Positions 1,310 to 27,635 are shown, counted from the first letter of the stretch. The stretch: DNA of 57,621 bases from Parcubacteria group bacterium GW2011_GWA2_47_21 (GCA_001000545.1 LCOC01000004.1:1-57621), one strand, 5' to 3'. Translations and numbers: made by a program. Notes: a model not told the origin generated them from the letters alone.

Positions 1310-1315
1310 AATAGT

Positions 1316-11548: not shown

Positions 11549-12958
11549 ATGACTGAAGGGGTTAAAACTCTGTTTATGACCGTGCCGTCGGCCGCCGCCA
11601 GACGGTACCTTTTTCAATTTCCTAATTGCGTTTCTCATCAATTGCAAAAACTGGCGCAAACCCGCTCTGATTTAAGAATTGTTTTTTTGGTTGTAAAAAA
11701 GGATTACGATAGGTATAAGCCATTTCTAACTTTGTTTCCGAGCGAACGAGTCACTGTTGAACCGATTGAAATTAGCTACGAACGCACTCTAGTTCAAAAA
11801 CTATTCCGTTTTTTTTACTCATATCTTCTTTATACCAACACAACAAAAATTCTCGCCACTATGGGTATGCGTCCGGACGAGCCGCCAGCTGGCGGCAATC
11901 GTTTTTTGGCACCCGTAAAATGGCTTCTTGCGAACACCTTTGGGCGTTCTATATTCATCCGCAAAAAACTGGCGCCTTGGTTGTACTTTAAAATCAACCC
12001 GGAGCGACCGTTTGCCGAAGCGTTTGAAAAATACCAGCCGGATGTCGTGTTTCTTTCAAGTATTTACGACCGGTTTGATTCCCGTTTGATTCCAGAGGCC
12101 AAGCGTCGTAGCGTAAAAACAATTGCCATGCAGGCGAGCTGGGACCACATTGATAAATACTACATGCCGTTTCAAGCCGACATTTTCATAGCCCACAGCG
12201 AACAAATCAGAAGGGCAGCGATAAAATTTCAGAGCTATAAGCCGGAATCAGCGGTTGTTACCGGTTACCCGCACTTTGATTATTTTACGAGTTCGGAATC
12301 GCTTGTCCCCAGGGAGAAAGTTCTGGCGGAGCTTGGGCTTTCGAATGACGCTCGTTATATTCTTTACGTCTCCGGCAGTTCCTATTGCCCCGATGAGCCG
12401 GATATCATTGACACTATGCTTAAGTGGGTTTCGGAAAATAAATTCGGCGAGGATATTTACATAATTCTTCGGCCGTACCTTGGTTCGCGCAGCAAAGACA
12501 GGGATTTTGACGTCTGGCGTTACAAGGAACTAAAAAGTCACCCTCGGCTTCGGGTGTTTGAAAAAAGGGGACTGGAGGACTTTAACGACACAGCGATGTT
12601 TATAAACATCATGCGACACTCAAGTATCGTTATGTCGGTTTATAGTACGGTGGTTCTGGAATCTGTAGTGTTTGATCGGCCACTTTTAACTGCTCCTTTT
12701 GACGGCTATAAAAAAAGACCTTTTTACCGCTCTATTAAAAGATTTGAGGGTTTTGAACATTTTCAGGACGTGATTAAAAGCGGTGGGCTTCGACGCGCTT
12801 TTAATTTCGGCGAACTTAAAGAGGCGATTCGCGCTTATCTTGAAAACCCCCAACTTGATAGAGAGGGAAGAGAGAGAATGCGCAAGGAGCTTTGTTATAA
12901 GCTTGACGGCAGGTCGAGTGAGAGGATGGTGGAAGTTATTTTAAGAGAATTATTTTAA
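11549..12958 (+). CDS. GT-B-like putative glycosyl/glycerophospho-transferase, SWD-motif family, paralog 1
   Basis: MQASWDHIDK, VTGYPHFDYF, IILRPYLG, VYSTVVLESVVFDRPLL and the C-terminal LENPQLDREGRERMRKELCYKLDGRSSERM. Start trimmed to ATG 11549. Confidence 0.55.
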   Translation: MTEGVKTLFMTVPSAAARRYLFQFPNCVSHQLQKLAQTRSDLRIVFLVVKKDYDRYKPFLTLFPSERVTVEPIEISYERTLVQKLFRFFYSYLLYTNTTKILATMGMRPDEPPAGGNRFLAPVKWLLANTFGRSIFIRKKLAPWLYFKINPERPFAEAFEKYQPDVVFLSSIYDRFDSRLIPEAKRRSVKTIAMQASWDHIDKYYMPFQADIFIAHSEQIRRAAIKFQSYKPESAVVTGYPHFDYFTSSESLVPREKVLAELGLSNDARYILYVSGSSYCPDEPDIIDTMLKWVSENKFGEDIYIILRPYLGSRSKDRDFDVWRYKELKSHPRLRVFEKRGLEDFNDTAMFINIMRHSSIVMSVYSTVVLESVVFDRPLLTAPFDGYKKRPFYRSIKRFEGFEHFQDVIKSGGLRRAFNFGELKEAIRAYLENPQLDREGRERMRKELCYKLDGRSSERMVEVILRELF

Positions 12959-12990
12959 TTAACCTAAAAGGATCCCAATGAAAATAAGCC

Positions 12991-13097
12991 CCAAACTCTA
13001 AATTCTAATCAAGTTCAAATTTCCAAAATCAAAACTCAAATTTAATCTTTGAACTTTGATTTTTTAGTTTGATTAGAGTTTAGATATTAGAGTTTGG
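12991..13097. repeat. long imperfect palindrome built from ccaaa/tttgg words
   Basis: ccaaactctaaattctaatcaag... on the left and ...ttgattagagtttagatattagagtttgg on the right are imperfect reverse complements. It sits in the 194-nt spacer upstream of paralog 2. Confidence 0.65.
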
Positions 13098-13152
13098 AAT
13101 TTGCGATTTGGAACTTTTTTAGAAATTAGGATTGAAAGTTAATTATTGTGCC

Positions 13153-14517
13153 ATGTCTCCTCAAAAGACGTTATTTATTGTTTGCTTTCACCCATTAGTG
13201 TCCCGAAATATTTTATCGGCGCCGTTTTTTGAGTTGCTGAAAAAAAATTCCGGACTCAAAATTGTGCTTATCGTACACGAGAAGAAAAAGGATTTTTTTG
13301 ACAAAAATTACGGCGGGGGCAATGTAGTCGTCGAGGGAGTCAAGAGGAATTTAAATGAACTGGATTATTTGTTCAAAGATTTAGCGGCCGCGGCAATTCG
13401 GACTCGTTCCCGCAAACTTATCAGGAAAATGAGATTGGGGCATGAGCGCTGGAATGCCTACAAAATTTTTTTCTGGGCGCCCTTGATTCGCCCCTTAATT
13501 CCGAAATTGTTTTCCTTAATTGTGCCAAGGAATCGCTACGCCTTTTTATTTGAAAAATACACACCGGCGCTTCTTTTGACAACCGATGTGTTCAATCCGA
13601 TGGATGTTATTCTTGCCCACGAAGCCAAACATAGAGGTGTTAAGGTTTTAGGCATGGTTCGTTCTTGGGACAACTTAACGGCCAAAGGAGGATTTCGGGT
13701 GGTTCCCGACGAGCTTATTGTCAATAATGAAATTATAAAACAGGACGCGATAAAAATTCATGGCGTGTCTGATAGGGTTATTAAAATCGTGGGCATTCCT
13801 CACTACGACAAATATTTAGACGGTTCGCCTCTAACGAGAGAAGAATTGTATAAACGTCTGGGGATTGGTTTAGACCGGAAGTTTATTGTCTATGCCCCGG
13901 TAGGGAATCGCTTTTTTACTCGTAATACTTTTGACCGTGAGATGGTTCTTATAATACGGGAGATGTTGCCTGACGGGTTTCATTTGATTGTTCGCTGTCC
14001 GCCCGGCGACCCGGTGGATTTGGAGGGGGTATCAAAAGACCCTCGGATTATCATAGACCAACCGGGAACGAGATTTTCCGGAAGCGGCGAGAGGCAAATG
14101 GATACGGAAATGTCGCCAGCCGACGATGATTGGCTGGTTTCGGTTCTCTATCACTCGGAATTACTTATTTCCGGTTTTACGACCCTAACCGTTGATGCCG
14201 CTCGTTTTAATAAACCTGTAATCGTGGTTGGCTTTGACGCAAAAACACCTCTGCCTTATAGGGAAAGCGTCAAGCGCCATCTTGAATTTGAGCATTTCCA
14301 GCCGATTCTTAAAAGTGGGGGAGTCAGAATCGCGCACAGCGAAACGGAGCTAAAAAATTTATTTGCTCTGTATCTTAGGAATCCGGAGACCGACGGGGAG
14401 AAACGAAAAGCCATGGTGATGAAGCAGGCCTATAAATTGGATGGCAAAGGAAGCGAACGTTTGCTAGAGTGTATAGTTACCGCGTTAGAAATTAACAGTA
14501 ATCGGTCGGATGTGTAA
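13153..14517 (+). CDS. GT-B-like putative glycosyl/glycerophospho-transferase, SWD-motif family, paralog 2
   Basis: MVRSWDNLTAKG, VGIPHYDKY, LIVRCPPGDP, GFTTLTVDAARFNKPVIVVGFD, LRNPETDGEKRKAMVMKQAYKLDGKGSERL. ATG 13153 preferred over TTG 13132. Confidence 0.55.
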   Translation: MSPQKTLFIVCFHPLVSRNILSAPFFELLKKNSGLKIVLIVHEKKKDFFDKNYGGGNVVVEGVKRNLNELDYLFKDLAAAAIRTRSRKLIRKMRLGHERWNAYKIFFWAPLIRPLIPKLFSLIVPRNRYAFLFEKYTPALLLTTDVFNPMDVILAHEAKHRGVKVLGMVRSWDNLTAKGGFRVVPDELIVNNEIIKQDAIKIHGVSDRVIKIVGIPHYDKYLDGSPLTREELYKRLGIGLDRKFIVYAPVGNRFFTRNTFDREMVLIIREMLPDGFHLIVRCPPGDPVDLEGVSKDPRIIIDQPGTRFSGSGERQMDTEMSPADDDWLVSVLYHSELLISGFTTLTVDAARFNKPVIVVGFDAKTPLPYRESVKRHLEFEHFQPILKSGGVRIAHSETELKNLFALYLRNPETDGEKRKAMVMKQAYKLDGKGSERLLECIVTALEINSNRSDV

Positions 14518-14553
14518 TTTTTTAATTTATCTAAATTGACCTAATTTCTAAAT

Positions 14554-14685
14554 AAATTCCAAATTACAAATTACAAACAATACCAAAATCTAAATTTCAA
14601 AATCCCAAACTAGAAATTTTGTTTTGAATTTGTAATTTTGGTCATTGAATATTGTTTGGTATTTGGTGCTTGTAATTTGGAATTT
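14554..14685. repeat. long imperfect palindrome built from ccaaatt/aatttgg words
   Basis: aaattccaaattacaaattacaaacaataccaaaa... pairs imperfectly with ...tgtttggtatttggtgcttgtaatttggaattt. It shares attgacctaa and ttccaaatt words with the 47584..47739 spacer. Confidence 0.65.
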
Positions 14686-14691
14686 TATATC

Positions 14692-16503
14692 ATGAGTATT
14701 AAACAACCAATCATTTTAGGTCTAAAAGTAACCAACCACGATACGGGGGCGGCTTTGATTGCCGGTGGAAAAATCGTGGCGATTGCCGAGGAACGGCTTT
14801 GCCGGGTTAAGCATTCCCGGAATATTTTTCCCGCTTTATCAATAGATTATTGCCTTGGCGCTTTGGAAGTTAAGCCGGATGAAGTTGAGCTTCTGGTGAT
14901 TGACCAAGTGCGGTATCGGACCCAGGAATCCTCACTGCAAATTTTAAGGAATCAGGTTGGGAACCGCTTTAAAAACGCCAAGGTGCATGTTATCAATCAT
15001 CACGACGCTCACGCCGCCGCGGCTTTTTTCTGTTCCCCGTTTGCTTCCGCCGCGGTGCTTATTGTTGATGGGGCGGGTGAAAGCGTGCGCGATCATTTGG
15101 GGGTATTAGGGACGGAAACAGAGACGCTCTATCGCGGTTTCGGCAATAAGATTCAGGAAATTCAGAAAACCACCCACATTCGCGGCATGCTCGGTTTTCC
15201 GTCCACGATCGGTATTGGGAAACTTTACTCGTTTATTTCCAACGGTTATCTGAATTTTGGCGATTACAATGAAGGCAAGATGATGGGGCTCGCGCCGTAC
15301 GGCACGGACGAGATTCTGAAAAAATACCCATTTGAAAATTGGTTTAAGGAAGTCGGCAATCATATTGTTTGCAACCCGCGAATTATTTTTCCCGGCATTG
15401 AGCAGGTTAAAGGGGTGCGCCAAAAATTACACTGGCGCGGGCAACTGCTTTGGCTTTGGACTAAGGTCTGGAGCGCCGTTGGGTACTTCGCTTTTGAAAG
15501 GGCCGCTCGTTCGCGCGCGCCTCTTATCACCAAACAAAATTTTTTCTCCGACGTTATTTTGAAAGAGCGCCGGCGAGGGAAAAAAGACCAGTTGCCGCAA
15601 GATTATTACTCGGCAGCGGCCCACGCCGTTCAGAAAGTACTGGAGGAGGTAATGGTTGCCTGGGGTAAAAAAATCAAAGCAGTGACTAATGAGAATAATC
15701 TTTGTGTTTCTGGCGGGGTGGGACTCAACATTGACGCCAACAAACGTTTTCTTGACGATGTCGGCTTCAAAGAGCTCTTCATCCAGCCCGCCGCGTCTGA
15801 TACCGGTATCGCCCTCGGCTGTGCCCTTTGGGGCGCTCATATGATACTGGGACTGCCCAGATTTTATGAAATGAAATCAGCGGCGCTTGGCCGTTCTTAC
15901 ACAGAAGAAGAAATAAAGTCGGCTTTGGAGAAAGAATCATCCAGAATTAATTTTCGTAAATCGGCCGATGTTGCTACCGATACAGCAAAACTTATCGCTC
16001 AAGGTAATATCATAGGCTGGTTTCAAGGTGGGGCTGAATACGGGCCAAGGGCTTTAGGCAACCGCTCAATTATTTGCGATGCTAGAAATCCTAAAATGAA
16101 AGATATTGTTAATGAGAAAGTGAAACACCGCGAGAGCTGGCGGCCGTTTGCGGCATCTATTCTCTCCGAACGGCAGCGCGAGTGGTTTGAGCTTGATTAT
16201 CCAAGTCCTTTCATGCTTCTGGCGGCAAAAGTGCCGAAAGAGAAGAAAGAACTCATTCCTTCTGTTGTTCATGTGGACGGCACTTGTCGAATTCAGGCGG
16301 TAACGCCCGAATCCAACCGCCCATACTATGATTTACTCAAGGCCTTTGAGAAAGAAACCGGTGTGCCCCTTTTCTTAAACACTTCCTTCAACGACGCCGG
16401 CGAACCAATAGTTGAAACGCCAGAAGACGCTCTTCGTTGTTTTCTTAATACGAAGATTGATTATTTAGTTATGCACGACTACGTTATCTCCAAGCATGGA
16501 TAA
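14692..16503 (+). CDS. carbamoyltransferase, NodU/CmcH family
   Basis: ILGLKVTNHDTGAALI, VINHHDAHAAAAF, YGPRALGNRSI and VHVDGTCRIQ are family hallmarks. Start trimmed to ATG 14692. Confidence 0.9.
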   Translation: MSIKQPIILGLKVTNHDTGAALIAGGKIVAIAEERLCRVKHSRNIFPALSIDYCLGALEVKPDEVELLVIDQVRYRTQESSLQILRNQVGNRFKNAKVHVINHHDAHAAAAFFCSPFASAAVLIVDGAGESVRDHLGVLGTETETLYRGFGNKIQEIQKTTHIRGMLGFPSTIGIGKLYSFISNGYLNFGDYNEGKMMGLAPYGTDEILKKYPFENWFKEVGNHIVCNPRIIFPGIEQVKGVRQKLHWRGQLLWLWTKVWSAVGYFAFERAARSRAPLITKQNFFSDVILKERRRGKKDQLPQDYYSAAAHAVQKVLEEVMVAWGKKIKAVTNENNLCVSGGVGLNIDANKRFLDDVGFKELFIQPAASDTGIALGCALWGAHMILGLPRFYEMKSAALGRSYTEEEIKSALEKESSRINFRKSADVATDTAKLIAQGNIIGWFQGGAEYGPRALGNRSIICDARNPKMKDIVNEKVKHRESWRPFAASILSERQREWFELDYPSPFMLLAAKVPKEKKELIPSVVHVDGTCRIQAVTPESNRPYYDLLKAFEKETGVPLFLNTSFNDAGEPIVETPEDALRCFLNTKIDYLVMHDYVISKHG

Positions 16504-17488
16504 AGCCAGTAATAGAGCCTCTCAAGCGAACGAATTTTCTGAAATAAGTTTTGAGCCGCTATCGCGTTGTGAGCTTTGCCAATCAAGTTCATTTCGGTCC
16601 ATCGGGAGCTATGACTTGAAAGGTATTGTGCTCCGTTACACTTTATGCGAACAGTGCGGTTTTGTGCAGATGAATCCGGTTACCAGTGAGGCAAGTATGA
16701 ACCTTTTCTATCAAAAGGAGTATTGGCGCAATATCTCCAAGGGATCTTTGGGAAGGGTGCAACGGAAACAAATTTATCGGGCGAGGCAAATCATAAACTT
16801 TACAACCGAACGTTTAAAAAAAATGGATTCAGATGTAGTAAGAGTGCTAGAGATTGGTTCTAGTTTTGGCAATACTTTAGAGATGGTCGGCGGGGTGATT
16901 TCTTCGCTCGGGAAAAAGACCGTATTATACGGAATTGAACCGAACGAAGCGATAGCCAAAGACGGTGTTTCTGTTTATAAGCAAATTAAGTTAATCGGGA
17001 GAAGTTATCGCGACTTAGATAAGATTCATGAAATATATGATTTTATTATCTTGAGTCATGTTTTGGAACATTTAAGAGATCCTGTCGGGGTTCTGCGATT
17101 AATAAGAGAAAAACTAGCATCAGCCGGGTTCATGTATATCGAGGTACCGAATTTTTACGGTCATCAATCTTATCATATATACCATGTCAGCTGTTTTACA
17201 CCGATATCTCTGAAGTCGGCATTGGCCAACGCCGACTTATCGGGAGAAGTGTTTGCCTACGGAGGAAATCGGCAATTTCCAAAATTCATCGGTGTTATAG
17301 CCTATAAACAACAAGGTAAAGGATCAGTAGGGCAGTACTCAGTCGCTGTTGCAAAGGGCAGCGGAGATCCTAGACAGGTTATTGAAAGACGAGCCGCATT
17401 CGAGAGGTATTTAGCCTCGAAAAGGAAAACCAATTTCCTTTCCCGCATATTTAGGAAATTCGGCGGAAAGTTCTTGCCAAAATTTTGA
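16496..17488 (+). CDS. class I SAM-dependent methyltransferase with N-terminal Cys4 zinc ribbon
   Basis: CELCQSS...CEQCGF ribbon, VLEIGSSFGN, ILSHVLEHLRDP. The start overlaps the carbamoyltransferase stop by 8 nt. Confidence 0.7.
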   Translation: MDKASNRASQANEFSEISFEPLSRCELCQSSSFRSIGSYDLKGIVLRYTLCEQCGFVQMNPVTSEASMNLFYQKEYWRNISKGSLGRVQRKQIYRARQIINFTTERLKKMDSDVVRVLEIGSSFGNTLEMVGGVISSLGKKTVLYGIEPNEAIAKDGVSVYKQIKLIGRSYRDLDKIHEIYDFIILSHVLEHLRDPVGVLRLIREKLASAGFMYIEVPNFYGHQSYHIYHVSCFTPISLKSALANADLSGEVFAYGGNRQFPKFIGVIAYKQQGKGSVGQYSVAVAKGSGDPRQVIERRAAFERYLASKRKTNFLSRIFRKFGGKFLPKF

Positions 17489-17537
17489 GCTCGGATTATT
17501 GAAAGATAAATCTCTGCTTTAAGTACCGGTGAAAATG

Positions 17538-18476
17538 TCACAAGGAATTAATGACCGATTCGGGCTTTTCACCTCTCGCGATATGTTCAAAATTTTTGAC
17601 GGCAAACATCATCGCCGCTTCATAGGTTTCTTTAGCTGCGCCGGCGACATGGGGGGTGATAATTACGTTTTTAAGCGAGAGCAGCCTCGCATCAATCTTT
17701 TTTTTGTCGGTTACGACATCAAGACCAAGACCCCCAAGTTTGTCCTCTTTAAGCGCGGCATACAAGGCCTGGTCATCGATGAGTTCAGGTCGCGCGGTAT
17801 TAATGAGAATTACCCCCTTTTTCATTAAACCAAATTCCTTTTTTCCTATTATGCCGGCTGTTTGCGGGTTATTTCTAAGATGAAGAGTTATGATGTCAGA
17901 GTTTTCTATAAGTTCATTGAGAGGGGATGAGTTTGGCACTGGCTTTATATCGTTAATTAAGATTTTCGCGCCAAAGCTTTGTAATCGTTCCGACACTTTT
18001 GATCCGATGTTGCCGTAGCCAATAATACCGACTGTTTTTCCATGAAGCGTATTAAGGTTCATTCCATAATCCTGGTCCATACCTTTCCCTTGGCGTCCCC
18101 GCTCGAGGTTCCCCGGTAAACCGCGCAAAACCGCCAGAATTAAAAGGATGGTGTATTCAGCTACAGCGATGGCGTTTGCGCCGCCATTATTAGCGACTGG
18201 TATTCCTTTTTTTGTTGCGCCTTCCACATTAAACTTATCATAACCGGAACTTAGGAGCTGGATAAGTTTAAGCCGGTTCCCGTAAAGGTGTTCAGGTAAA
18301 TACTTGCCGCTCGGAGTGAAAATGGCGATATCAGTCTCCTTTAAGGCACGCTCGAATTGGCTGTCGGGGGCGGAGAAGGGCAGTCGCTCAACAGTGAAAG
18401 ATTTTGGAATTAGATCAATGAGAAAATCGACGTATTGGCGTGGCAGTTTGTCTTTATATGAGAAAACAGTTTTCAT
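17538..18476 (-). CDS. D-isomer-specific 2-hydroxyacid dehydrogenase (glycerate/phosphoglycerate dehydrogenase-like)
   Basis: GKTVGIIGYGNIGSKV NAD-binding motif, INTARPELID and ITPHVAG catalytic-domain blocks. Confidence 0.85.
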   Translation of the reverse strand: MKTVFSYKDKLPRQYVDFLIDLIPKSFTVERLPFSAPDSQFERALKETDIAIFTPSGKYLPEHLYGNRLKLIQLLSSGYDKFNVEGATKKGIPVANNGGANAIAVAEYTILLILAVLRGLPGNLERGRQGKGMDQDYGMNLNTLHGKTVGIIGYGNIGSKVSERLQSFGAKILINDIKPVPNSSPLNELIENSDIITLHLRNNPQTAGIIGKKEFGLMKKGVILINTARPELIDDQALYAALKEDKLGGLGLDVVTDKKKIDARLLSLKNVIITPHVAGAAKETYEAAMMFAVKNFEHIARGEKPESVINSL

Positions 18477-18556
18477 TTCTTAAGTTAAAGATCGATGATA
18501 CTATAGCATGAAAGGAGATTGTAATCGCATCTTTTTTTCGGTTGCGAAATGTCATT

Positions 18557-19471: not shown

Positions 19472-20851
19472 ATGTCTGACAGCAACAGAGAAAAAAAAAT
19501 TGTTTTTTTTGTCAAATCCGTAAGGTTCCTTCGCTACTTCAAGAGCGTGCTCACGGCATTTCTCGAAATGGATTACAGAGTGACCGCGGTCTTTGATGCA
19601 AGTAAAATTGAGCCGGTCTCGGACGATTCGCTGAAGAATCTTCAAAGCAGATTCCCTTTTTTTGCGTGGAAAAATGGTCCTCTTAGAACTGATATCTTTA
19701 GGCGTTTGGTTATCGCTAGTCGTAATATTCTTAACTATCAGTTTCTATTGCGCAGGGGGGTGGTGGCGTGGCGTTTGAAAAGGCATTTTGATTACTTGCC
19801 GATTTTCTTGCAGAAATTTATCCTCATAGTAACACCTTTCGCAAAAGTGTTAATTAAATCCGGCGTGGCTGAATTCGTATGTCGGTCTGTGGAAAAAATT
19901 GTTCCTCCAGATGAGGGTATTACGTCTTTTTTACGATCTTTGAAATCCGACGCTTTAATTGTTTCCTACCGAAGCTTTCCTTGCTTGTCGCCGGATATAG
20001 ATTATGTCAAGTCTGGTATGGCTTTGGGCATCCCGACCACAATTATTATCCCTTCTTGGGATCAGCCGACCACTAAGTCCCTTATCCAAATCATTCCGGA
20101 TAAGGTTTTTGTTTGGAACGAAGAGCACGCATCTGTTTTATCGCGTGAACACGCCGTACCGCGGAATAAAATTGTTATATCTGGCGCACCCCAGTTTGAC
20201 GTTTTTTTTGAACGCAAAACCCCCTTTCGTTCCATCAATGATTTTTTAAGCATTTATAGGATTACGGCAGGACCTCCTTTTGTTCTATACATTGCGTCGT
20301 CTGGTGAGCGAGATAGCGCTCTGGTAAAGGAATTATCACTAACTTTAAGCAGTAATTCTGATGGGGCGCTTCAATCGATAACTATCCTGGTACGGCCGTA
20401 TCCGGGAAGAGAAAACTGTTTTGCTGACCTTAAACTTCAAAATGTTAAAGTTTTACCTGCTCCTCTGGAAGGCCGCCGCTCGCTCGATGATGATCAAGAT
20501 TTTTTCGATGCCATCTACCATTCTTTTGCGACAATTGCCCTGTCTAGCACGGCTTTACTGGATACCATTGCCATAGGTCGTCCGTCTATTATGTATTTTG
20601 ATAAACGTCATAAAGAAATCCAAAGCGATGCCCATTTGGAGACGCTTTATCGAAGCGGCGCTTTTTACACGGCCTATAATCTTACGGAACTTATGCCAGT
20701 TCTTAAGAGGATTAATGCCGGGGATGATTTTTTGCGGGAGAAGCGACATGATTACATTTGCAAATTTATTAGGCCGCAAGGTTCGACTAAGAGTGCGGCG
20801 GCGGTGGTAGTTGAGGAAATTGGCAAGCTGCTTTCTTCGCGTGTTAATTAA
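19472..20851 (+). CDS. GT-B-like putative glycosyl/glycerophospho-transferase, SWD-motif family, paralog 3 (most divergent)
   Basis: IIPSWDQPTTKS, SGAPQFDVF, ILVRPYPGRE, LSSTALLDTIAIGRPSIMYFD. The C-terminal tail is divergent. Confidence 0.5.
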   Translation: MSDSNREKKIVFFVKSVRFLRYFKSVLTAFLEMDYRVTAVFDASKIEPVSDDSLKNLQSRFPFFAWKNGPLRTDIFRRLVIASRNILNYQFLLRRGVVAWRLKRHFDYLPIFLQKFILIVTPFAKVLIKSGVAEFVCRSVEKIVPPDEGITSFLRSLKSDALIVSYRSFPCLSPDIDYVKSGMALGIPTTIIIPSWDQPTTKSLIQIIPDKVFVWNEEHASVLSREHAVPRNKIVISGAPQFDVFFERKTPFRSINDFLSIYRITAGPPFVLYIASSGERDSALVKELSLTLSSNSDGALQSITILVRPYPGRENCFADLKLQNVKVLPAPLEGRRSLDDDQDFFDAIYHSFATIALSSTALLDTIAIGRPSIMYFDKRHKEIQSDAHLETLYRSGAFYTAYNLTELMPVLKRINAGDDFLREKRHDYICKFIRPQGSTKSAAAVVVEEIGKLLSSRVN

Positions 20852-20858
20852 TTTTTTT

Positions 20859-22271
20859 ATGAAGACCATATTAATTCCAATAAACAGCAATTTTTTTGCC
20901 AGGAACTTTCTTCGCACCGACGCTTTCAAGATTCTTAAGGCGAGACAAGATTTGCGGGTTGTTCTTTTGGTGCCGCCGTCCAAACTTTCTTACTACCGCA
21001 AGGAATTCGGGAGCCAACAGGTCATTGTTGATAATCTGGCATTAACCAGAGACAGCGCCGTTGAGAATTTCTTTCGTTTTTTGGAAAGGAACAGTATTGT
21101 TACCAATCGAGTGAAAATGGACCAAATCACGGCTCTTTATAAGAGGAAGAAGGAGCCGGTTCTTAAGGCGACAATCCGGTTTTTGTTGCGTCTTGTTAAT
21201 TTCTTGGCCGCGCGAGCCCTTTATTATTTTGGCCACCTCGGCATGTCTTGGAGATTCCTTGTCAGATGGCTCTACAGTTTAGTGCCGACACATTACTACG
21301 TCCAGGTCTTTGCCGCCTACAAACCCGATTTGATTTTTTGTCCCACTTTGGTGTGGCATGAGGACTACTGTCTTATCCGGGAGGCCAGAAAGTCGGGTGT
21401 CAAAACGGCCGGCATGATTTTTTCCTGGGACAGTTTTTACAGCAAGACATTTTTTTTGGCCTACCCGGGCCATCTTTTTGTTCAGACGCCGGAAATCGCA
21501 AATCAGGCCAAACAGCTTGCAAATTATCCGTACGAAATAGATGTGGTCGGTTTTCCTCAATACGACAGTCATTTTCAGAAGCGGGGAATAATTCCTCGCG
21601 CCGAGTTTTTAAAACAATTTGGAGCGGACCCGGCGAAAAAATTGATTCTTTACGCCTTCTCCGGCAAAGCGGGACTGGATATTGAGTTTGATGTTTTGGA
21701 TATTATGGCCAAGGCGATTAGAAGCGGAGAAATTAAAGGCGCGCCTGAAGTTCTCATCCGACCGTACCCGCGCTTTGATTTTTCGGAGGCGAAATTAAGC
21801 GATTTGAAGCGCCGCTATGGATTTAGAGCGGCCGCCTCCACTTCGAATATCGGCGCTGATTCCTCCGCTGATTGGGAGATGGATGACAGGGCCATTTCGC
21901 TTTTAGTCAACAGCTTGGCGCACGCCGATTTGATAATCACCATGTACTCAACGTTTTTTATTGAAGGGGCAATTTTCAACAAGCCCTTAATTGCCGTCGG
22001 CTTTGACGGGTTTAAGACGCGGCCATATCCCTTGTCCGCCAAGCGGTTTTTTAATTGGGACCATCTCAAGGATTTAAAGGCGCAGGGCGGCATATCAATT
22101 GTTTCCTCAGCGGAGGAGTTTATTGCCGCGATTAATCGGTCATTAGCCGAACCGGCGTATCTAGCGGCGGGGCGAGGGCGAATCGTCAGCGAGCACTGCT
22201 ATTTTAAGGATGGAATGTCGGGGAAACGCCTGGCGGAGGCCCTGATTAAGGCCTTGCCAAGACAACAATGA
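20859..22271 (+). CDS. GT-B-like putative glycosyl/glycerophospho-transferase, SWD-motif family, paralog 4
   Basis: MIFSWDSFYSKT, VGFPQYDSH, VLIRPYPRFD, MYSTFFIEGAIFNKPLIAVGFDG. Start trimmed to ATG 20859, 7 nt after the paralog 3 stop. Confidence 0.55.
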   Translation: MKTILIPINSNFFARNFLRTDAFKILKARQDLRVVLLVPPSKLSYYRKEFGSQQVIVDNLALTRDSAVENFFRFLERNSIVTNRVKMDQITALYKRKKEPVLKATIRFLLRLVNFLAARALYYFGHLGMSWRFLVRWLYSLVPTHYYVQVFAAYKPDLIFCPTLVWHEDYCLIREARKSGVKTAGMIFSWDSFYSKTFFLAYPGHLFVQTPEIANQAKQLANYPYEIDVVGFPQYDSHFQKRGIIPRAEFLKQFGADPAKKLILYAFSGKAGLDIEFDVLDIMAKAIRSGEIKGAPEVLIRPYPRFDFSEAKLSDLKRRYGFRAAASTSNIGADSSADWEMDDRAISLLVNSLAHADLIITMYSTFFIEGAIFNKPLIAVGFDGFKTRPYPLSAKRFFNWDHLKDLKAQGGISIVSSAEEFIAAINRSLAEPAYLAAGRGRIVSEHCYFKDGMSGKRLAEALIKALPRQQ

Positions 22272-23161
22272 CAATCAAGAATAAATTATTCTCTATCTTC
22301 AAATGGACGCACGGTAAACTTTTCGGAAGAAATCTGGGCGCTATCCCATTTTTAAGATTGCTCAAAAGGGCGACTTTTAAATTGCTTAAGCCCCGCGGCA
22401 TAGTGCCGGTTTCGGTTTTCGGAGGCCGGCTTTTTATTGATTCAACGGATGACGCGGGCGGAGTGGATTTGCTTCTTCACGGTGTCTACAGCCCATTTGA
22501 AACTGAAATTATAAAAAGAATCGTTAAACCGGGGATGATGGCTGCCGACATCGGAGCTCATATCGGTTACTTCACGCTGCTTTTGGCAAAACTTGTGGGC
22601 CCGGAGGGCCGGGTGCACGCCTTTGAGCCGGAGCCGGCCAACTTCAAACTGCTTTCTAGAAATGTTGAGGAAAATAAATTAGCCAATGTGACTTTATACA
22701 ACCTGGCGCTTTCGGACCAGGAAGGGACGCATGAACTTTATTTGGATGCCTCCAATCTAGGCAACCCGTCATTTTCAGAAAGAAACCTTCCCCCGGGCGC
22801 TAAAAAAGGGAGTGTCTCGGTCAGAACCGGTAAGTTGGATAATGTGATTAAAACGTTTGATTTTATTAAAATTGACGTTCAAGGGGCGGAGGGGTTGGCG
22901 CTTGCCGGCGCCGCCGGCACTCTTAAGGGCGTTAAGGCCATAGTTATGGAATTTTGGCCCTACGGCCTTCGAAACCAAGGCACCAACCCTCTTCAATTGC
23001 TGGAATACCTGATGTCTTTTGGCTTTTCCCTTTATGTAATGAGCGAGGCAAAAAAAGAGTTAAAGAAGAAGTCGCCGGCGGAATTATTGAATGTCTCCCG
23101 AAACAGGCCTGGGGGGAAGGGTTGGGCTGACGTTCTTTGTTACAAAGGCGCTCTTCGGTAG
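22268..23161 (+). CDS. FkbM-family methyltransferase
   Basis: AADIGAHIGYFTL, VHAFEPEPANFKLLSRNVEEN, FIKIDVQGAE. ATGA start/stop overlap with paralog 4. Confidence 0.8.
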   Translation: MTIKNKLFSIFKWTHGKLFGRNLGAIPFLRLLKRATFKLLKPRGIVPVSVFGGRLFIDSTDDAGGVDLLLHGVYSPFETEIIKRIVKPGMMAADIGAHIGYFTLLLAKLVGPEGRVHAFEPEPANFKLLSRNVEENKLANVTLYNLALSDQEGTHELYLDASNLGNPSFSERNLPPGAKKGSVSVRTGKLDNVIKTFDFIKIDVQGAEGLALAGAAGTLKGVKAIVMEFWPYGLRNQGTNPLQLLEYLMSFGFSLYVMSEAKKELKKKSPAELLNVSRNRPGGKGWADVLCYKGALR

Positions 23162-23170
23162 GGAGTCCAA

Positions 23171-24346
23171 ATGCAATTCAACGAGCCAATAAAATTTTTC
23201 TTTTACGCGGGGCTGTTACTGCTTGCGAGCCCCGTTCTTTTGTTATGGGCTCGTTTCAGAAAAGGCAAATTAAGACCGACCGCGCCGAAGATTTTGGTCA
23301 TACCGGTTCTAACCAGAGTCGGAGATTTAGTAAGCGCTACGCCGGTCTTTCGGGAGATTAAGATAAAGTATTCCAAAAGTTATTTGACCGTGATTTCTGC
23401 CGGCAAGGCCATTGGGGTTTTGGAGAATAATCCTAGAATTGACGAACTCATTAATATCAATAAAGAGCCGTTCCGGGGTCTCTTTGGCCGGGGCCGGCTT
23501 TATCTTCACTTGATGAAAAAGGGGTTTGACTTCGCTTTCACTTTGCCGCCCTCTCCGTTCGGTTCTCTGCTCGCATTGAGTTCTTTGGCGCCGTTTAGAG
23601 TTAAGACCGTTTTTCCCAGCCGGTCAATGGCCGAGAGATTGACCGATTGGCTTAATACCGAACTGAAGCCCTACAAGGCGGGAGAATTTTTACCCGGCCA
23701 TTATTTGTCTTTACTTCAAACGGTGGGTATTAACGGGGCCGATGTAGTAAAAGAGGTCTTTATTACCGCTGAAGGTGAAAAAAAGGTCAGCGAGTTTCTT
23801 GCCTCTAACGGCATTTCTGGTGGCGATTTTCTTGTCGGTATCGCTCCTTCCGCCGGTTCAAAAAGAAAAGAGTGGCCGATGGAAAGATTCGCGGTCGTGG
23901 CAGACGCGCTGGCGGAGAAATTCAAGGCCAGGGTTGTTATAATAGACGGCGCGGCGGGTAGAGAAAAAGCCGGCAAGTTTCAGTCAATGATTAAGGGCAG
24001 CCGAACGGCCTTCGCGGCGGTTGATTTTAACTTGAGAGAGTTGTCGTCGCTTATGAAAAGATTGTCGCTTTTCATATCGGTTGATACCGGTCCGATTCAT
24101 ATCGCCGAGGCGCTTGGCGTGCCGGCGGTAGATATTTTGGGCACGGAGACCCCGGGGGAAATGGCGCCGCGCTCTGTCCGTTGTTTAGTCCTTCAACCAA
24201 GAGGGGTGCCGCCGGTTTTTTCGGTTACCGGAGTGGTGGGCGCTCTTAATCGCGCCAGAGAGGCGGTGCTGTCAATAACCGTTCTAGATGTGCTGGGCGC
24301 GGTTGATGAATTGGTTAAAAGAGGCGCGATAAAAATTAAAAATTAA
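23171..24346 (+). CDS. family-9 glycosyltransferase (heptosyltransferase-like)
   Basis: ILVIPVLTRVGDLVSATPVFREIK N-terminal block, SAGSKRKEWPMERF, FISVDTGPIHIAEALGVPAVDILG. Confidence 0.7.
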   Translation: MQFNEPIKFFFYAGLLLLASPVLLLWARFRKGKLRPTAPKILVIPVLTRVGDLVSATPVFREIKIKYSKSYLTVISAGKAIGVLENNPRIDELININKEPFRGLFGRGRLYLHLMKKGFDFAFTLPPSPFGSLLALSSLAPFRVKTVFPSRSMAERLTDWLNTELKPYKAGEFLPGHYLSLLQTVGINGADVVKEVFITAEGEKKVSEFLASNGISGGDFLVGIAPSAGSKRKEWPMERFAVVADALAEKFKARVVIIDGAAGREKAGKFQSMIKGSRTAFAAVDFNLRELSSLMKRLSLFISVDTGPIHIAEALGVPAVDILGTETPGEMAPRSVRCLVLQPRGVPPVFSVTGVVGALNRAREAVLSITVLDVLGAVDELVKRGAIKIKN

Positions 24347-24414
24347 AAATCATAACTCAAACATAAAATATTTCTTTGTTTTACGCTTTACGCTTTTAGT
24401 TTTAAGTTTATATT

Positions 24415-26232
24415 ATGCGCTTGCCCTATTTTTTAAAGAAATCGCTCCAAATCTCGGAAAAGCTTTTTCGCCCTTACATCGGCCGATTTTTCCTGCTGGC
24501 CGGCGTCGGTTTTTTGACCGGTTTTGCCGACAGCGTGGGTATTTCTCTTCTCATACCGCTTTTCGCTTTTTTTGTCGGTTCAAGCGAGGCCGTGCCGAGC
24601 ACCTTCGCTACCGATTTTGTTCAAGGCCTTTTTAGCCGTTTTCACATTGATTTAACTTTCCAATTGCTTCTTATCATCGTTGTGTCGGTCTTTATTTTTA
24701 AAACCGCTTTTCTGGCTTTTTTCGGCAGTTTGCGCATCAAAGCCACCGTCGCTTATTATCGAGACGTCCAAAAGAAAATTTTTAAAGAGACCCTTTCCGC
24801 CGATTATCGCTATCTTTCGGGAGAGAAAGCCGGCCGTTTGGTGAGTTTGCTCACGACCGACGCCAAACAAAGCGTCCGGCTTTTGGACAATTTAATCGGT
24901 TTGGTTTTCATCTTCACTTCCGTGGCGGCTTATCTCGCGGTGGCTTTTTCGTTGTCGGCGAGCATCACGCTGGTCACTTTAGCGGTGGGTTTTGCGGTTC
25001 TGCTTCTTTTCCGGCCGGCGGTTCGTCTGATTCGCAGTTATACCAGAGAGCTCATCGCTTTACGCCACGAGCTTTTTCAATTTTTAAACGAGAGTATTTT
25101 AGGCCTTAAAACGATTAAAGCGATGAGCGTGGAGGAGGCCCTCATCAAAAAATCTTCCGAGTGGCTTCAGCGTACGGAGAAAATTGAAATGAAACGCCAG
25201 TACGTGAAATTTTTCAGCAAGACGGCGCTGGAACCGATTACGATTTTTTACATTCTGGCGGTTTTTTCCATCTCTTATTTTTATTTGGATTTCAACATCG
25301 TGAGTTTTATCGCCATTGTCTATATCATCCAGAAGATTTTCAGCAATGTTGAGAAATTGCAATCGGCGATTCATCTTATGAACACGGAATTGCTTCACGC
25401 CGTGGCGGTTACCGACCTGCTCTCTCAGATTGCCTTAAATAAAAAGGAGCAAACCGGTAGCCGCCCGTTTGCCCTCAAAGAAGGTCTGGAGTTTAGAAAT
25501 GTCGGTTTCAGCTACGCCTCGGGGCGCGGTTTCGTTAAAGATGTGTCGTTCAAAATTAAAAAGGGAGATTATGTCGGTATTGTCGGCCGCTCCGGTTCCG
25601 GTAAGACGACCATCGTTGACCTATTGCTTCGGCTGCTGGTGCCGGACTCGGGCGCGATTTTAGCGGACGGGATTGATGTCAAAGATTTAGATTTGAATTC
25701 GTGGCGGCAGAATGTCGTTTATGTGCCGCAAGACGCTTTTCTTTTCAATGATACGGTTTTAGCCAATATTTCTTTTTACGACGGTGCTGTGGGGCGGGCG
25801 GAAGTGAGCGAGGCGGCAAGGTCGGCTCACATTCTTGAAGTAATCAATAAATTGCCAAAAGGGTTTGACACGCCGATTGGCGAGCGCGGCACCGCTCTTT
25901 CCGGCGGCGAGCGCCAGCGCGTCGCTTTGGCCAGAGCGCTTGCCAGAAAGCCGGCTATTTTGGTTTTGGACGAGGCGACTAGCGCCGTTGACGTCCATTC
26001 GGAACAACTCATACAAGAGACCATCAAGCATTTGCGCGGTAAGACGACGGTCATCGTCATCGCCCACCGGCTTTCTTCTGTTTTGGATGCCGACAAAATT
26101 ATTACTATTGACGGGGGGCGGGTGATTGAAGAAGGCCGGCCCGCCGATTTGGCCAAAATCCCCGGCTCTTATTTAGCCCAAGCGATTGCCGCCGGCGCTC
26201 GCGGTGCTTCTCTATGGTTGCCAACAGAATGA
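24415..26232 (+). CDS. ABC exporter, fused permease/ATPase (MsbA/PglK-type)
   Basis: About 300 aa of N-terminal TM helices, Walker A GRSGSGKTT, signature LSGGERQRVALARAL, Walker B ILVLDEATSAVD, H-loop AHRLS. Confidence 0.9.
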   Translation: MRLPYFLKKSLQISEKLFRPYIGRFFLLAGVGFLTGFADSVGISLLIPLFAFFVGSSEAVPSTFATDFVQGLFSRFHIDLTFQLLLIIVVSVFIFKTAFLAFFGSLRIKATVAYYRDVQKKIFKETLSADYRYLSGEKAGRLVSLLTTDAKQSVRLLDNLIGLVFIFTSVAAYLAVAFSLSASITLVTLAVGFAVLLLFRPAVRLIRSYTRELIALRHELFQFLNESILGLKTIKAMSVEEALIKKSSEWLQRTEKIEMKRQYVKFFSKTALEPITIFYILAVFSISYFYLDFNIVSFIAIVYIIQKIFSNVEKLQSAIHLMNTELLHAVAVTDLLSQIALNKKEQTGSRPFALKEGLEFRNVGFSYASGRGFVKDVSFKIKKGDYVGIVGRSGSGKTTIVDLLLRLLVPDSGAILADGIDVKDLDLNSWRQNVVYVPQDAFLFNDTVLANISFYDGAVGRAEVSEAARSAHILEVINKLPKGFDTPIGERGTALSGGERQRVALARALARKPAILVLDEATSAVDVHSEQLIQETIKHLRGKTTVIVIAHRLSSVLDADKIITIDGGRVIEEGRPADLAKIPGSYLAQAIAAGARGASLWLPTE

Positions 26233-27635
26233 AAACGATTTTTATCGCCATTTTAAACGGGGTGGAGGGCAAAAATATTCTCCGTTCCGCGGTGTATAAG
26301 ACCTTGAAGGCGAAAGGGGACTGGCGCATCGTCTTGCTTTTCCGAAGCAAAACGCTGGCTTCCGTCTACGAAGCGGAATTCAAAACCCCCGGCACTTTTT
26401 TTGAGCTCCTGCCGCCTATTAAAAAATTGCTCCCGGAGAGAATTTTCTCCCGCCTGAAACTTTATCTGCTCCGCAGTAAGACCACGGACTTGCACCGGCA
26501 GACCCACCTGGAAGAAACCGGCAATTACCCGATTTATTTTTTAAGTTTATCATTCAACAGAATTTTCGGCCGGGCGTTTGTTCGCCGCGCGGTTCGTTTT
26601 TTGGACGAGCGGCTAATTCGCCAAAATAATCTCACTCCGCTTTTTGAAAAATATCGGCCCAACCTGGTCTTTCTCGCCGACCTCTTTAATGATTTGGAAG
26701 CGGCCATTCTTCGGGAGGCCAAGCGGCAAAAGATTCCCTCCGTCGGCTTGGTGAACACTTGGGACAGAATTACCACCCGCTGGCTGATTAGGATTCTTCC
26801 CGACTATTTTATTGCGTTCAATGAGATAGTAAAGGCGGAGCTCGCGGAGTATGACGATTTTCCTCTTGATAAAATTTATGTTTCCGGCACGGTTCAGCAC
26901 GACCATTTGGTCAGCGGCGAGTTTAGCAGTCGGGAAGAATTCTGCCGCCGTCTTGGCATTGATTCAGCGAGTAAGATTTTGGTCTACGCGCCTCTCGGGA
27001 AGTTTTTTGACCAATCAAGGCCGGAGCTTGATAAATGGCTGGTTCGGATTTTAAGCGAACGGGCGACGGAAGGGAAATTCGGGCAAGAGAAACTCACGAT
27101 TTTAGTCCGATTCCATCCCAACGACCTGGTTGATTTGGGCGAGTGGCCGAATTTGCCGAATGTCGTCTACAGCCGGCCGGGGCTTAAGTTTACTTCCGCT
27201 CTTTCGGATAAAGTGTTTAGTCGGACAAGGGGGCAGAATTGGGACTTGACCTTTGAGGACCTGACGCTCCTTCGCGACACTCTTTATCAAAGTGCCCTAG
27301 TCATTTGCTATTACACCTCTTTTTCCATTGATGCGGCGGTTTTAGACAAGCCGGTTATCAATGTGAATTTTGGCGTGAAAGACGGGCAAATTACTAAGAC
27401 CCCCCATTCTTATTACGCGTCCGTTCATTATCAAAAAGCCGCCCGGACCGGCGGCATCAAGTTGGCGGCCGACGAAGAAGAATTTTTCGCCGCCATCACA
27501 AATTATCTTGCCAATCCCGCTCTTGATAGGGAAAAAAGACGGCAATTGGTTTCGGAGCAATGTTTCAAACTAGACGGCCATTCCGGCGAGAGAGTGGCGG
27601 AGTATCTTCTAAAATTTCTAAATCCTAAATCCTAG
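26229..27635 (+). CDS. GT-B-like putative glycosyl/glycerophospho-transferase, SWD-motif family, paralog 5
   Basis: LVNTWDRITTRW, SGTVQHDHL, ILVRFHPNDL, YYTSFSIDAAVLDKPVINVNFG, LANPALDREKRRQLVSEQCFKLDGHSGERV. ATGA overlap with the ABC exporter stop. Confidence 0.55.
   Translation: MKTIFIAILNGVEGKNILRSAVYKTLKAKGDWRIVLLFRSKTLASVYEAEFKTPGTFFELLPPIKKLLPERIFSRLKLYLLRSKTTDLHRQTHLEETGNYPIYFLSLSFNRIFGRAFVRRAVRFLDERLIRQNNLTPLFEKYRPNLVFLADLFNDLEAAILREAKRQKIPSVGLVNTWDRITTRWLIRILPDYFIAFNEIVKAELAEYDDFPLDKIYVSGTVQHDHLVSGEFSSREEFCRRLGIDSASKILVYAPLGKFFDQSRPELDKWLVRILSERATEGKFGQEKLTILVRFHPNDLVDLGEWPNLPNVVYSRPGLKFTSALSDKVFSRTRGQNWDLTFEDLTLLRDTLYQSALVICYYTSFSIDAAVLDKPVINVNFGVKDGQITKTPHSYYASVHYQKAARTGGIKLAADEEEFFAAITNYLANPALDREKRRQLVSEQCFKLDGHSGERVAEYLLKFLNPKS

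Follow-up and report, generated by a model that had tools for sequence, protein, structure and literature searches.

The stretch of DNA treated here, called the window in the following, comprises 57,621 nucleotides of Parcubacteria group bacterium GW2011_GWA2_47_21 (GCA_001000545.1 LCOC01000004.1:1-57621), and between its positions 11,549 and 27,635 it carries five related genes, whose products are named P1 to P5 according to their order. An earlier note, made from the sequence alone, had described them as diverged full-length paralogues of an unassigned enzyme family with the two-Rossmann-half layout of GT-B glycosyltransferases (GT), had listed shared motifs, and had proposed that they catalyze five different steps in the assembly of one polymer. 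All five open reading frames (ORFs) are found at the positions given there, they code for 454-470 residues, and also every listed motif is present, including the C-terminal KLDG.S.ER tail that had been claimed for four of the five copies and that is indeed missing from P3.

11549-12958, plus strand: P1, 469 residues, predicted W-D-type transferase of the TagF fold; S-W-D 12137-12145, GYPHFD 12263-12280, R-P-Y-L 12470-12481
13153-14517, plus strand: P2, 454 residues, predicted W-D-type transferase; S-W-D 13663-13671, GIPHYD 13792-13809, R-C-P-P 13993-14004
19472-20851, plus strand: P3, 459 residues, divergent member; S-W-D 20054-20062, GAPQFD 20183-20200, R-P-Y-P 20393-20404
20859-22271, plus strand: P4, 470 residues, predicted W-D-type transferase; S-W-D 21423-21431, GFPQYD 21549-21566, R-P-Y-P 21759-21770
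26229-27635, plus strand: P5, 468 residues, W-D-type; T-W-D 26757-26765, GTVQHD 26886-26903, R-F-H-P 27108-27119; directly upstream of neuB

The five paralogues and their orthologues

The five ORFs are true paralogues, with P3 as the outlier. In a MAFFT alignment, P2 to P5 share 20-29% identity with P1, and 16 columns are invariant in all five. Among these columns are the Trp and the Asp of [ST]-W-D, the Gly and the Asp of the G-x-P-x-x-D linker, the Arg of the R-P-Y-P strand, and a His late in the sequence. P1, P2, P4 and P5, all of which have the DG.S.ER tail, match each other over nearly their full length with E-values of 1e-31 to 1e-56, and P3 matches the other four over about 200-280 residues with 4e-6 to 1e-2 (BLASTP, computed with a database size of 1e8). 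A hidden Markov model (HMM) built from P2 orthologues alone recognizes residues 173-427 of P3 with 64 bits (E 5.6e-16, Z = 1e6), and the AlphaFold2 model of P3 has the same GT-B topology as that of P2, with the S-W-D directly after the fifth strand of the N-domain, which is why P3 is to be regarded as a real family member. The longest possible ORF of P1 overlaps with its start region (11198-11548) a methyltransferase gene on the opposite strand; the true start of P1 probably lies internally in this ORF, and position 11549 agrees with the alignment.

The closest homologues of P2 are encoded, for example, by Parcubacteria bacterium Gr01-1014_17 (67% identity) and Candidatus Giovannonibacteria (54%), which are metagenome-assembled genomes (MAGs) of the Parcubacteria/Patescibacteria, also known as the Candidate Phyla Radiation (CPR), and a scan of one genome per species yielded 75 loci, essentially all of them in Patescibacteria MAGs. 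Each of the five has a one-to-one orthologue in other Parcubacteria genomes with 47-72% identity, as compared to 20-30% among the paralogues, and thus the copies are old, as the earlier note had assumed. The orthologues found at related loci (numbered L001 and so on) are the following:

P1: L001 8640-10004, 67% identity; 47-67% in L001, L004, L008 and L011
P2: L001 10001-11338, 67%
P3: L001 15610-16965, 47%
P4: L003 4352-5725, 49%; 49% in L003 and L004
P5: L011 13141-14538, 72%; 53-72% in L003, L008 and L011

The P2 orthogroup is the commonest one, with 101 of the 172 family members in the fetched loci, and the P3 orthogroup is rare, with 14 proteins that all come from Parcubacteria-type sources. 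In the 36 loci with full 10-kb flanks, there are three copies in 22, two in 5, four in 2, and one in 7, and the five copies in the window are the highest count among the loci compared. The whole clade comprises 11,547 representatives at 50% identity with E <= 1e-3, and 2,607 with E <= 1e-30, tandem-fused forms included. Such fusions are seen in several relatives (P0083-P0087, P0089), proteins of about 900 residues with two full modules, and in one protein of 1,546 residues three stretches are matched; the two-module relatives indicate that neighbouring paralogues are sometimes fused into one polypeptide. A P1-type gene is divided into two ORFs in the Giovannonibacteria record at NCBI (L003 6579-7969) and intact in the European Nucleotide Archive (ENA) assembly of the same sequence (L004 6545-7969), so that a broken reading frame in these MAGs can be an artefact of the assembly.

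Fold, family and the W-D motif

The family had been called unassigned, but it does have a place. Four of the five proteins exceed the gathering score (22.1 bits) of the Pfam model Glyphos_transf (PF04464, TagB/TagF), with 34.2 bits for P1, 48.3 for P2, 27.4 for P4 and 32.9 for P5, and only P3 stays under it on its own (13.2 bits). A profile of 58 family sequences matches TarL (8va1, 6e-11) and the TagF-like capsule polymerase Cps3D (8qoy, 2.5e-6), and in hhalign comparisons the family is matched to six canonical TagF-like proteins, taken from plasmids, with 98.8% probability (E 6e-17), the controls being Epimerase_2 with 96.4% (E 1.4e-9), two GT4 clusters with 80% and 12%, and GT9 with 4%. Also the motifs that had been thought to characterize the family specifically are shared with the PF04464 proteins (TagB/TagF/TarF/TarL, Cps3D, Bcs3) and align directly to TarL: besides the GT-B fold, these are the interdomain linker G-x-P-(R)-x-D (G-V-P-R-T-D in TarL), the nucleotide-binding block [ST][ST]...(K/R)P (S-S-L-I-Y-E-Y-A-V-F-K-K-P in TarL) with its ribose-binding acid (SSLIYEY in TarL versus STxxxDA in the family), and the C-terminal DG.S.ER motif (Y-Q-D-G-R-S-S-E-R in TarL). 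Some homologues are in fact already labelled 'CDP-glycerol glycerophosphotransferase family protein' in public records.

The AlphaFold2 models of P2 (predicted local distance difference test, pLDDT, 95; predicted template-modelling score, pTM, 0.93) and P3 (pLDDT 91.6, pTM 0.90) both have a GT-B fold, and in both the first Rossmann strand begins at residues 5-9. TagF-like polymerases carry an additional N-terminal domain ahead of the GT-B module (PMC10901376); according to the models and to their length of 454-470 residues, the five proteins do not possess this domain that is known from TagF, TarL and TarK. Inserted into the N-domain are about 70 helical residues of basic and hydrophobic character (69-136 in the P2 model), by which the monotopic membrane binding of the TagF-like enzymes is probably shared. 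On the grounds of profiles, hhalign and models, the five are members of the TagF superfamily in their fold and their C-domain, and they are single-module GT-B enzymes of about 460 residues in a large unnamed clade of the TagB/TagF (PF04464) superfamily.

In Foldseek searches with the P2 and P3 models, 316-360 structures of the PDB were matched at E <= 1e-3, and the best 50 for each model are all GT-B enzymes. The two-Rossmann-half layout of the earlier note is thereby confirmed, but TagF is not singled out by the structure comparison: for both models the UDP-N-acetylglucosamine (UDP-GlcNAc) 2-epimerases (WecB/MnaA/NeuC) come first (best match E 1e-12, template-modelling score, TM, 0.55-0.57), TM scores are about 0.5-0.57 throughout, and TagF and TarL occupy ranks 34-46 for the P2 model. 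As Foldseek did not separate TagF from other GT-B enzymes, the profile-profile controls were relied on. The proteins could thus be taken for no transferases at all, but for NeuC/WecB-like epimerases or hydrolases in a nonulosonic-acid (NulO) pathway or for non-catalytic scaffolds, and besides the Foldseek ranking the second-best profile match, Epimerase_2, would fit this, as would the lack of a recognizable Epimerase_2 gene in the window and in three of the four other loci that contain a NeuB-cupin fusion gene (L003, L008, L015). In hhalign, the W-D of the family lies opposite an acidic I-D-E segment of NeuC-type enzymes. The similarity to TagF-like proteins is stronger, however, with 6e-17 versus 1.4e-9 in hhalign and 1e-13 versus 0.15 in Pfam, where Epimerase_2 (PF02350) is matched by P1 alone with 11.4 bits (E 0.15), not reaching the gathering threshold of 30.6. 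The helical insertion and a C-terminal tail of the TagF type set the family apart from the epimerases, most loci (20 of the 36 fully flanked ones) contain a genuine Epimerase_2 gene in addition, and arrays of two to five diverged copies with a membrane-type insertion fit transferases that act on lipid-linked acceptors. The strict conservation of the W-D, the R, and the G-x-P-x-x-D argues also against pseudo-enzymes, and it is thus highly improbable that these proteins are epimerases, hydrolases or scaffolds.

Membership in the MurG, GT4 or GT9 families was considered and rejected, as the sole Pfam match of this kind is a sub-threshold one of P5 to Glyco_transf_4 (E 0.022, 15 versus 28.5 bits), and the hhalign probabilities are 80% and 12% for the two GT4 clusters and 4% for GT9. 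The model TIGR04396 (surface carbohydrate biosynthesis protein) gives 28.6 bits for P3 (E 8e-7) and 14.7 for P1, and its cut-off of 125 bits is not reached. The earlier note had looked for the signatures of MurG and GT4, which were the wrong ones; the informative point is the W-H motif of TagF, which is replaced by W-D.

Two invariant His residues are essential in TagB, TagF and TarL and define TagF-like activity (PMC10901376). In TarL, the W299-H300 motif supplies the catalytic base, H300 (H444 in TagF), which stacks against the Trp, and the contact to the donor's alpha-phosphate in CDP is made by H433 (PMC10901376). Canonical TagF-like proteins have a Q-x-W-H-G/A after a beta strand in six of six cases, and both MAFFT E-INS-i and L-INS-i pair the Trp of the family's S-W-D with the Trp of this motif. 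In the E-INS-i alignment the Asp of the family is opposite the TagF His, in the L-INS-i alignment a gap is opened after the Trp, and the 33 residues from the next strand (beta6-alpha-beta7) to the G-x-P-x-x-D linker match without any gap between the family and TagF-like proteins. The second position is given by HMMER, which pairs F-K431-M-H433-P of TarL with the V-R-x-x-P of the family; it is occupied by Y in P1, P3 and P4, by P in P2, and by H only in P5. The base position is Asp in all five proteins of the window and in 435 of 437 relatives, and the Arg two residues before the position of the second His is similarly frequent:

77 loci with 172 members: base position Asp in 171, Arg in 172
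146 diverse representatives at 50% identity: Asp in 145, Arg in 134
119 proteins of an Acidobacteria clade, counted from HMM columns: Asp in 119, Arg in 119

Among the 146 representatives, the second-His position is H in 59, P in 46, Y in 22 and Q in 10, and the Acidobacteria clade differs in having a Q instead of a K after the W-D motif. Judged by these alignments, the W-D is the counterpart of the TagF W-H, and the five proteins fail both functional hallmarks of TagF-like phosphotransferases, as the first His is absent (Asp) in five of five proteins and the second in four of five. It is very likely that the clade represents a His-to-Asp variant of the TagF fold.

This bears directly on one alternative, namely that the five are ordinary TagB/TagF-type phosphotransferases that transfer glycerol, ribitol or other alcohol phosphates from CDP-activated donors and thereby make a teichoic-acid-like polymer, with the Asp and the Arg replacing both His. 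The PF04464 scores of four proteins speak for it, as do TarL and Cps3D as closest relatives of solved structure, the shared nucleotide-binding motifs of the C-domain, an ABC exporter gene nearby as in wall-teichoic-acid pathways, and a gene for an NTP_transferase (3417-4151) with weak likeness to phosphocholine cytidylyltransferase (E 1.5e-4). The residues that are required for that chemistry are missing (PMC10901376 for the requirement), and the dominant neighbour genes of the family are involved in the synthesis of CMP-ulosonic acids and not of CDP-alcohols. A linkage to genes for CDP-glycerol or CDP-ribitol synthesis (TagD, TarI/TarJ) was not observed, with a TagD-like CDP-glycerol synthetase found in only one of 77 loci, in a test that is approximate owing to its TagD query. 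A phosphotransferase function is therefore considered quite unlikely.

Linkage to nonulosonic-acid genes

The neighbour genes of the 77 loci were clustered with strict limits for coverage and E-value, the commonest clusters were annotated with Pfam, and HMMs made from them served for the counts in the fully flanked loci. The three commonest families are CTP_transf_3 (CMP-sugar synthetases of the NeuA/LegF/PseF type), NeuB (synthases) and Epimerase_2 (NeuC type), which correspond to three steps of NulO activation and outrank GT2, GT4 and flippases. Within 10 kb, CTP_transf_3 is present in 29, NeuB in 28 and Epimerase_2 in 20 of the 36 fully flanked loci, and at least one of the three in 31, whereas the chance to have one NulO gene set within 10 kb in a genome of about 1 Mb would be a few per cent, which is an estimate and not a computed control. 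Among the paralogues, the P2-type copies have a median distance of 2.3 kb to NulO genes and the P5-type copies one of 1.5 kb, and 17 P2-type and 6 P5-type copies are directly adjacent to such genes. The P5 orthologue of L003 directly precedes a NeuB-cupin gene, and the L001 copy that is closest to P5 (39% identity) directly precedes an Epimerase_2 gene.

The linkage is also found in unrelated lineages. On a plasmid of Rhizobium sp. WL3, a homologue annotated as 'hypothetical protein' directly follows neuB, kpsF, a glycosyltransferase gene, neuC and neuA. Its motifs are G-S-W-D-Q and R-C-H-P, and it is the only full-length homologue found among 72,556 plasmids, in which tblastn detected in addition two partial matches of Priestia and no member from Bacteroidota. 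On an Armatimonadetes contig (L088), two adjacent copies follow NeuB, Epimerase_2 and CTP_transf_3, and in a genome of 5.76 Mb (L089) the homologue adjoins NeuB, CTP_transf_3 and PseB/PseC-like genes. A co-occurrence of the family with the same neighbours in other genomes, which the earlier note had proposed to check, is thus seen for the NulO genes in 31 of 36 loci and for further neighbours in L001 and L003, but not in one Acidobacteria locus (L087), in which there is no NeuB within 10 kb of the homologue. The neighbours in L087 are sulfotransferases, an ATP-sulfurylase/APS kinase, a Wzt-type ABC ATPase and a PIG-L protein, and the members of the Acidobacteria clade, all of them 'hypothetical protein', have S-W-D-N-L-T-S-Q together with R-x-Y-P; a different donor or context is possible for this clade. 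In the literature searched, no paper ties Patescibacteria or glycerophosphotransferases to nonulosonic acids, and there was no usable gene-level information on teichulosonic-acid genes.

In the window, the genes around the paralogues constitute a large glycan-assembly locus, which is in agreement with the earlier note:

9683-10780, plus strand: GT2 glycosyltransferase (Pfam Glycos_transf_2, 4e-29)
14638-16503, plus strand: carbamoyltransferase (Pfam)
16496-17488, plus strand: methyltransferase (Pfam)
17538-18476, minus strand: D-2-hydroxyacid dehydrogenase (Pfam)
18542-19462, plus strand: FkbM methyltransferase (Pfam)
22268-23161, plus strand: second FkbM-type methyltransferase (Pfam Methyltransf_21, 7.4e-19)
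23171-24346, plus strand: GT9 (heptosyltransferase-family) glycosyltransferase (Pfam Glyco_transf_9, 1.2e-18); also in 21 of the 77 related loci
24415-26232, plus strand: ATP-binding cassette (ABC) exporter with fused transmembrane and nucleotide-binding domains (MsbA/PglK-like), candidate flippase (Pfam ABC_membrane and ABC_tran); same position in L001 and L003
27756-29297, plus strand: NeuB-family ulosonic-acid synthase with C-terminal cupin fusion (Pfam NeuB 1.9e-45, Cupin_2 2.3e-13)
33370-34452, plus strand: GFO/IDH/MocA oxidoreductase of the NulO gene set (Pfam)
34497-35090, plus strand: CTP_transf_3, homologue of CMP-ulosonic-acid synthetases, split (tblastn with the intact L003 orthologue)
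35170-35699, plus strand: His_Phos_1 phosphatase, split (Pfam; tblastn)
35703-36770, plus strand: APH-type kinase (Pfam); the His_Phos_1/APH pair is also in L003 and L015
38205-40490, plus strand: Wzy_C (O-antigen ligase/PglL-like) membrane protein of 761 residues with C-terminal tetratricopeptide (TPR) repeats (Pfam Wzy_C 2.6e-20 and TPR)

The tailoring block at 14638-19462 follows the P1-P2 pair also in L001, where the order is P1-P2, carbamoyltransferase, methyltransferase, 2-hydroxyacid dehydrogenase, FkbM, P3, GT9, ABC exporter, P5 and a NulO gene, and 10 related loci of Patescibacteria, as well as L087, L088 and L089, also code for Wzy_C proteins. The longest ORF of the GT2 gene overlaps at its start a methyltransferase gene on the minus strand (9062-9841), and the true start is probably downstream of this overlap. 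A nucleotide-sugar block at 175-9044 codes for a GHMP kinase, the mentioned NTP_transferase, two epimerase/dehydratases (one of them GDP-mannose-4,6-dehydratase-like), a short-chain dehydrogenase/reductase (SDR), an RmlC-like 3,5-epimerase, an FdtA-like cupin and a GFO/IDH oxidoreductase, and it resembles pathways for NDP-heptose/6-deoxy-heptose and deoxyhexose modification, which would fit the GT9 gene at 23171. Two proteins rich in Ser, Thr and Gly with N-terminal hydrophobic segments (29457-30422 and 30459-31544) are encoded between neuB and the other NulO genes, the second one with two PG_binding_1 domains, and a PG_binding_1 protein is encoded also in L001; these proteins could be wall-associated glycoprotein substrates.

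The NeuB-cupin gene begins 120 bp after the end of P5. The same fusion, whose cupin has a weak D-lyxose-isomerase-like match, occurs in L003, L008, L015 and L070, and in these five loci including the window it is accompanied by CTP_transf_3 in all five, by the GFO/IDH/MocA oxidoreductase in four (window, L003, L015, L070), and by the APH-type kinase and the histidine phosphatase in three (window, L003, L015). This suggests an alternative NulO route, perhaps of the Kdn type via phosphorylated intermediates. In the window, the frame of CTP_transf_3 that contains residues 1-38 differs from the one with residues 76-235, and residues 39-75 are missing (about 37 residues), and His_Phos_1 reaches a stop after its N-terminal part (MTTTFYLIRHAES...), lacks residues 28-53 of the orthologue, and changes frame (tblastn). 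It is odd that two adjacent genes have suffered the same kind of internal loss.

The nucleotide-sugar block enters also into another explanation, according to which the donor is a different nucleotide sugar, such as an NDP-heptose or NDP-deoxyhexose from the genes at 1-9044, and the association with NulO genes results only from the fact that all these genes share surface-glycan loci; this may apply to P1, P3 and P4 alone. The rich NDP-sugar gene set upstream would be in line with this, and so would the presence of several transferases per NeuB, the distance of 5-10 kb from NulO genes that is seen with the P1, P3 and P4 types, and the variation of the second-His residue by orthogroup (P, Y, Q, H), which hints at different contacts to the donor phosphate. 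However, NeuB, CTP_transf_3 and Epimerase_2 are just the three commonest neighbour families, the linkage recurs in lineages that are not related, and the conserved C-domain is that of cytidine-nucleotide enzymes, so that this alternative is on the unlikely side, though it deserves more weight than the ones discussed before.

Proposed function and its implications

There is a precedent, known from genetics, for TagB-like proteins as candidate NulO transferases. When the TagB-like Tanf_01245 or TFUB4_00887 is deleted in Tannerella forsythia, the protein O-glycan loses its terminal pseudaminic or legionaminic acid, in cells that contain the CMP-activated sugars (PMC5420450); BFO_1060 is the homologue of both in strain 92A2 (PMC5420450). 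Like these, the proteins of the window are TagB-like GT-B proteins encoded together with NulO biosynthesis genes, but the Tannerella enzymes are single copies that add a terminal sugar, whereas the W-D clade forms arrays of two to five diverged copies. All five match the NCBIfam model NF046086 of the BFO_1060 family with 24-47 bits (E 2e-5 to 2e-12), P1 with 46 bits over model positions 40-361 of 365, and distant clade members reach up to 71.5 bits and E-values down to 7e-20. These matches cover the N-domain around the W-D, a region that is outside the match of the TagF Pfam model. With scores of 24-71 bits versus a cut-off of 200, the five are not members of the BFO_1060 family, and the relationship of the two groups, for which the E-values are significant, is a remote one. 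With this genetically implicated precedent (PMC5420450) and the tight linkage to NulO genes, the term undescribed assembly system, which the earlier note had used, is too strong: Pfam and fold class and the candidate TagB-like NulO transferases were already known, and what appears to be new is the W-D/R-x-x-P clade without the catalytic signature of TagF, how large it is, the multi-copy arrays in Patescibacteria, and the tight NulO linkage.

Also the catalytic residues can be compared with known enzymes. In bacterial GT-B sialyltransferases, catalysis and the binding of CMP are described to depend on an H-P motif together with an acidic D/E-D/E-G motif (PMC5420450, PMC7439481), and the retaining KpsC/KpsS (GT107), WbbB (GT99), KpsS1 (GT118) and KrkA (GT140), which use CMP-3-deoxy-D-manno-octulosonate (CMP-Kdo) or CMP-pseudaminic acid (CMP-Pse), have a conserved Asp nucleophile (PMC12887879). 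The chemistry of CMP-sugars is therefore in line with the Asp that occupies the base position and with the R-x-H-P that many members have at the phosphate position. With GT38, GT52 and GT80, the proteins of the clade would share the GT-B fold, the CMP-NulO donor, an acidic base in the N-domain, and a contact to the CMP phosphate by a His-Pro with which the C-domain starts; an R-x-H-P that resembles this is present in P5, in the Rhizobium homologue and in 59 of the 146 representatives, but the His is absent from most W-D copies, and none of the Pfam sialyltransferase families is matched by the five at E <= 1. With the retaining ulosonic-acid transferases they would have in common a GT-B-like fold, a CMP-ulosonic donor and the dependence on a conserved Asp, which in those enzymes belongs to a QxxxD motif that is not seen in the W-D clade, and a sequence similarity was not detected.

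On balance, and by a narrow preference only, the W-D clade can be expected to consist of membrane-associated glycosyltransferases for CMP-nonulosonic acids, remote relatives of Tannerella BFO_1060, each of which carries out one step on a lipid-linked glycan. It is for the P2 and P5 types that the assignment of the donor has the best support, and the donor of P1, P3 and P4 may be the same or another one. The paralogues would be peripheral membrane enzymes at the cytoplasmic face, like TagF and TarL, whose monotopic platform the helical insertion of the N-domain resembles. The conserved C-domain would bind the cytidine-nucleotide donor, which would not be a CDP-polyol but a CMP-activated, sialic-acid-like nonulosonic acid that is provided by the linked NeuB and CMP-sugar-synthetase genes. 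Instead of a His, the Asp (D173 in P2 numbering) would either activate the acceptor hydroxyl as a base or attack the anomeric carbon as a nucleophile, and R281 (P2 numbering) would act on the donor phosphate. As it is an Asp and not a His that would act at the base position, glycosidic rather than phosphodiester bonds would be formed. Since there is no extra N-terminal domain of the TagF type and each paralogue has its own conserved orthologue, each would be expected to carry out one non-processive NulO transfer to the growing undecaprenyl-linked glycan, and to this extent the five different steps of the earlier note fit better than redundancy. GT9 and GT2 may add heptose or hexose residues to the same glycan, methyl- and carbamoyltransferases may decorate it, the fused ABC exporter may flip it in its lipid-linked form, and the Wzy_C/TPR protein, being of the O-antigen-ligase or PglL type, may hand it over to protein or cell wall.

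Several observations weigh against this interpretation. The equation of W-D with the TagF W-H rests on alignment and secondary-structure position; hhalign gave no reliable alignment of the N-domains and shifted the W-H motif by about 20 residues without confidence, and also with HMMER there was no dependable alignment between the N-domains of family members and those of TagF-like proteins. In Foldseek it is the epimerases and not TagF that come first with both models, and with NF046086 every score remains a long way under the curated cut-off, which is 200 bits. The related loci were gathered with P2-type patterns, so that the sample is biased to the P2 type, the few copies of the P1, P3 and P4 types lie 5-10 kb away from them, and the Acidobacteria locus is without a NeuB in its 10-kb surroundings. 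There are three to five transferases per locus but only one NeuB, for which reason not every copy need use a NulO donor. Finally, the split CTP_transf_3 and His_Phos_1 genes would mean either that NulO activation is decaying in this organism or that the assembly is faulty.

Little is known of the bacterial transferases for pseudaminic, legionaminic and Kdn-type acids, further families are still being defined, GT118 and GT140 among them, and the TagB-like candidates for NulO transfer have so far been the ones from Tannerella, known from genetics alone. If the proposed function is true, there would be a simple rule, namely W-D for W-H, an invariant Arg, and NeuB and CMP-synthetase genes as neighbours, by which thousands of proteins would be re-annotated, and a clade that is now 'hypothetical' or mis-annotated as CDP-glycerol glycerophosphotransferase would become a large new pool of NulO transferases for enzymologists. 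It would also be a case in which a phosphotransferase scaffold was turned to glycosyl transfer through the swap of a single catalytic residue. In its widest form, the idea would be that the S-W-D-N/R-x-x-P clade as a whole is a large, so far unrecognized glycosyltransferase family dedicated to NulO, with at least 2,600 representatives at 50% identity, that arose from the teichoic-acid phosphotransferase scaffold by the His-to-Asp switch, and that the arrays of three to five specialized copies in Patescibacteria produce either a polymer rich in NulO, comparable to a teichulosonic acid, or a protein glycan rich in NulO, which would be the principal anionic component on the surface of these ultra-small bacteria that live attached to hosts; this is a tentative idea that we would sooner doubt than assert. 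The matter bears also on the surface glycans of CPR/Patescibacteria, for whose life the attachment to host cells is central. The genomes of these bacteria are very small, and yet loci of at least 30 kb with three to five such enzymes have been retained in them.

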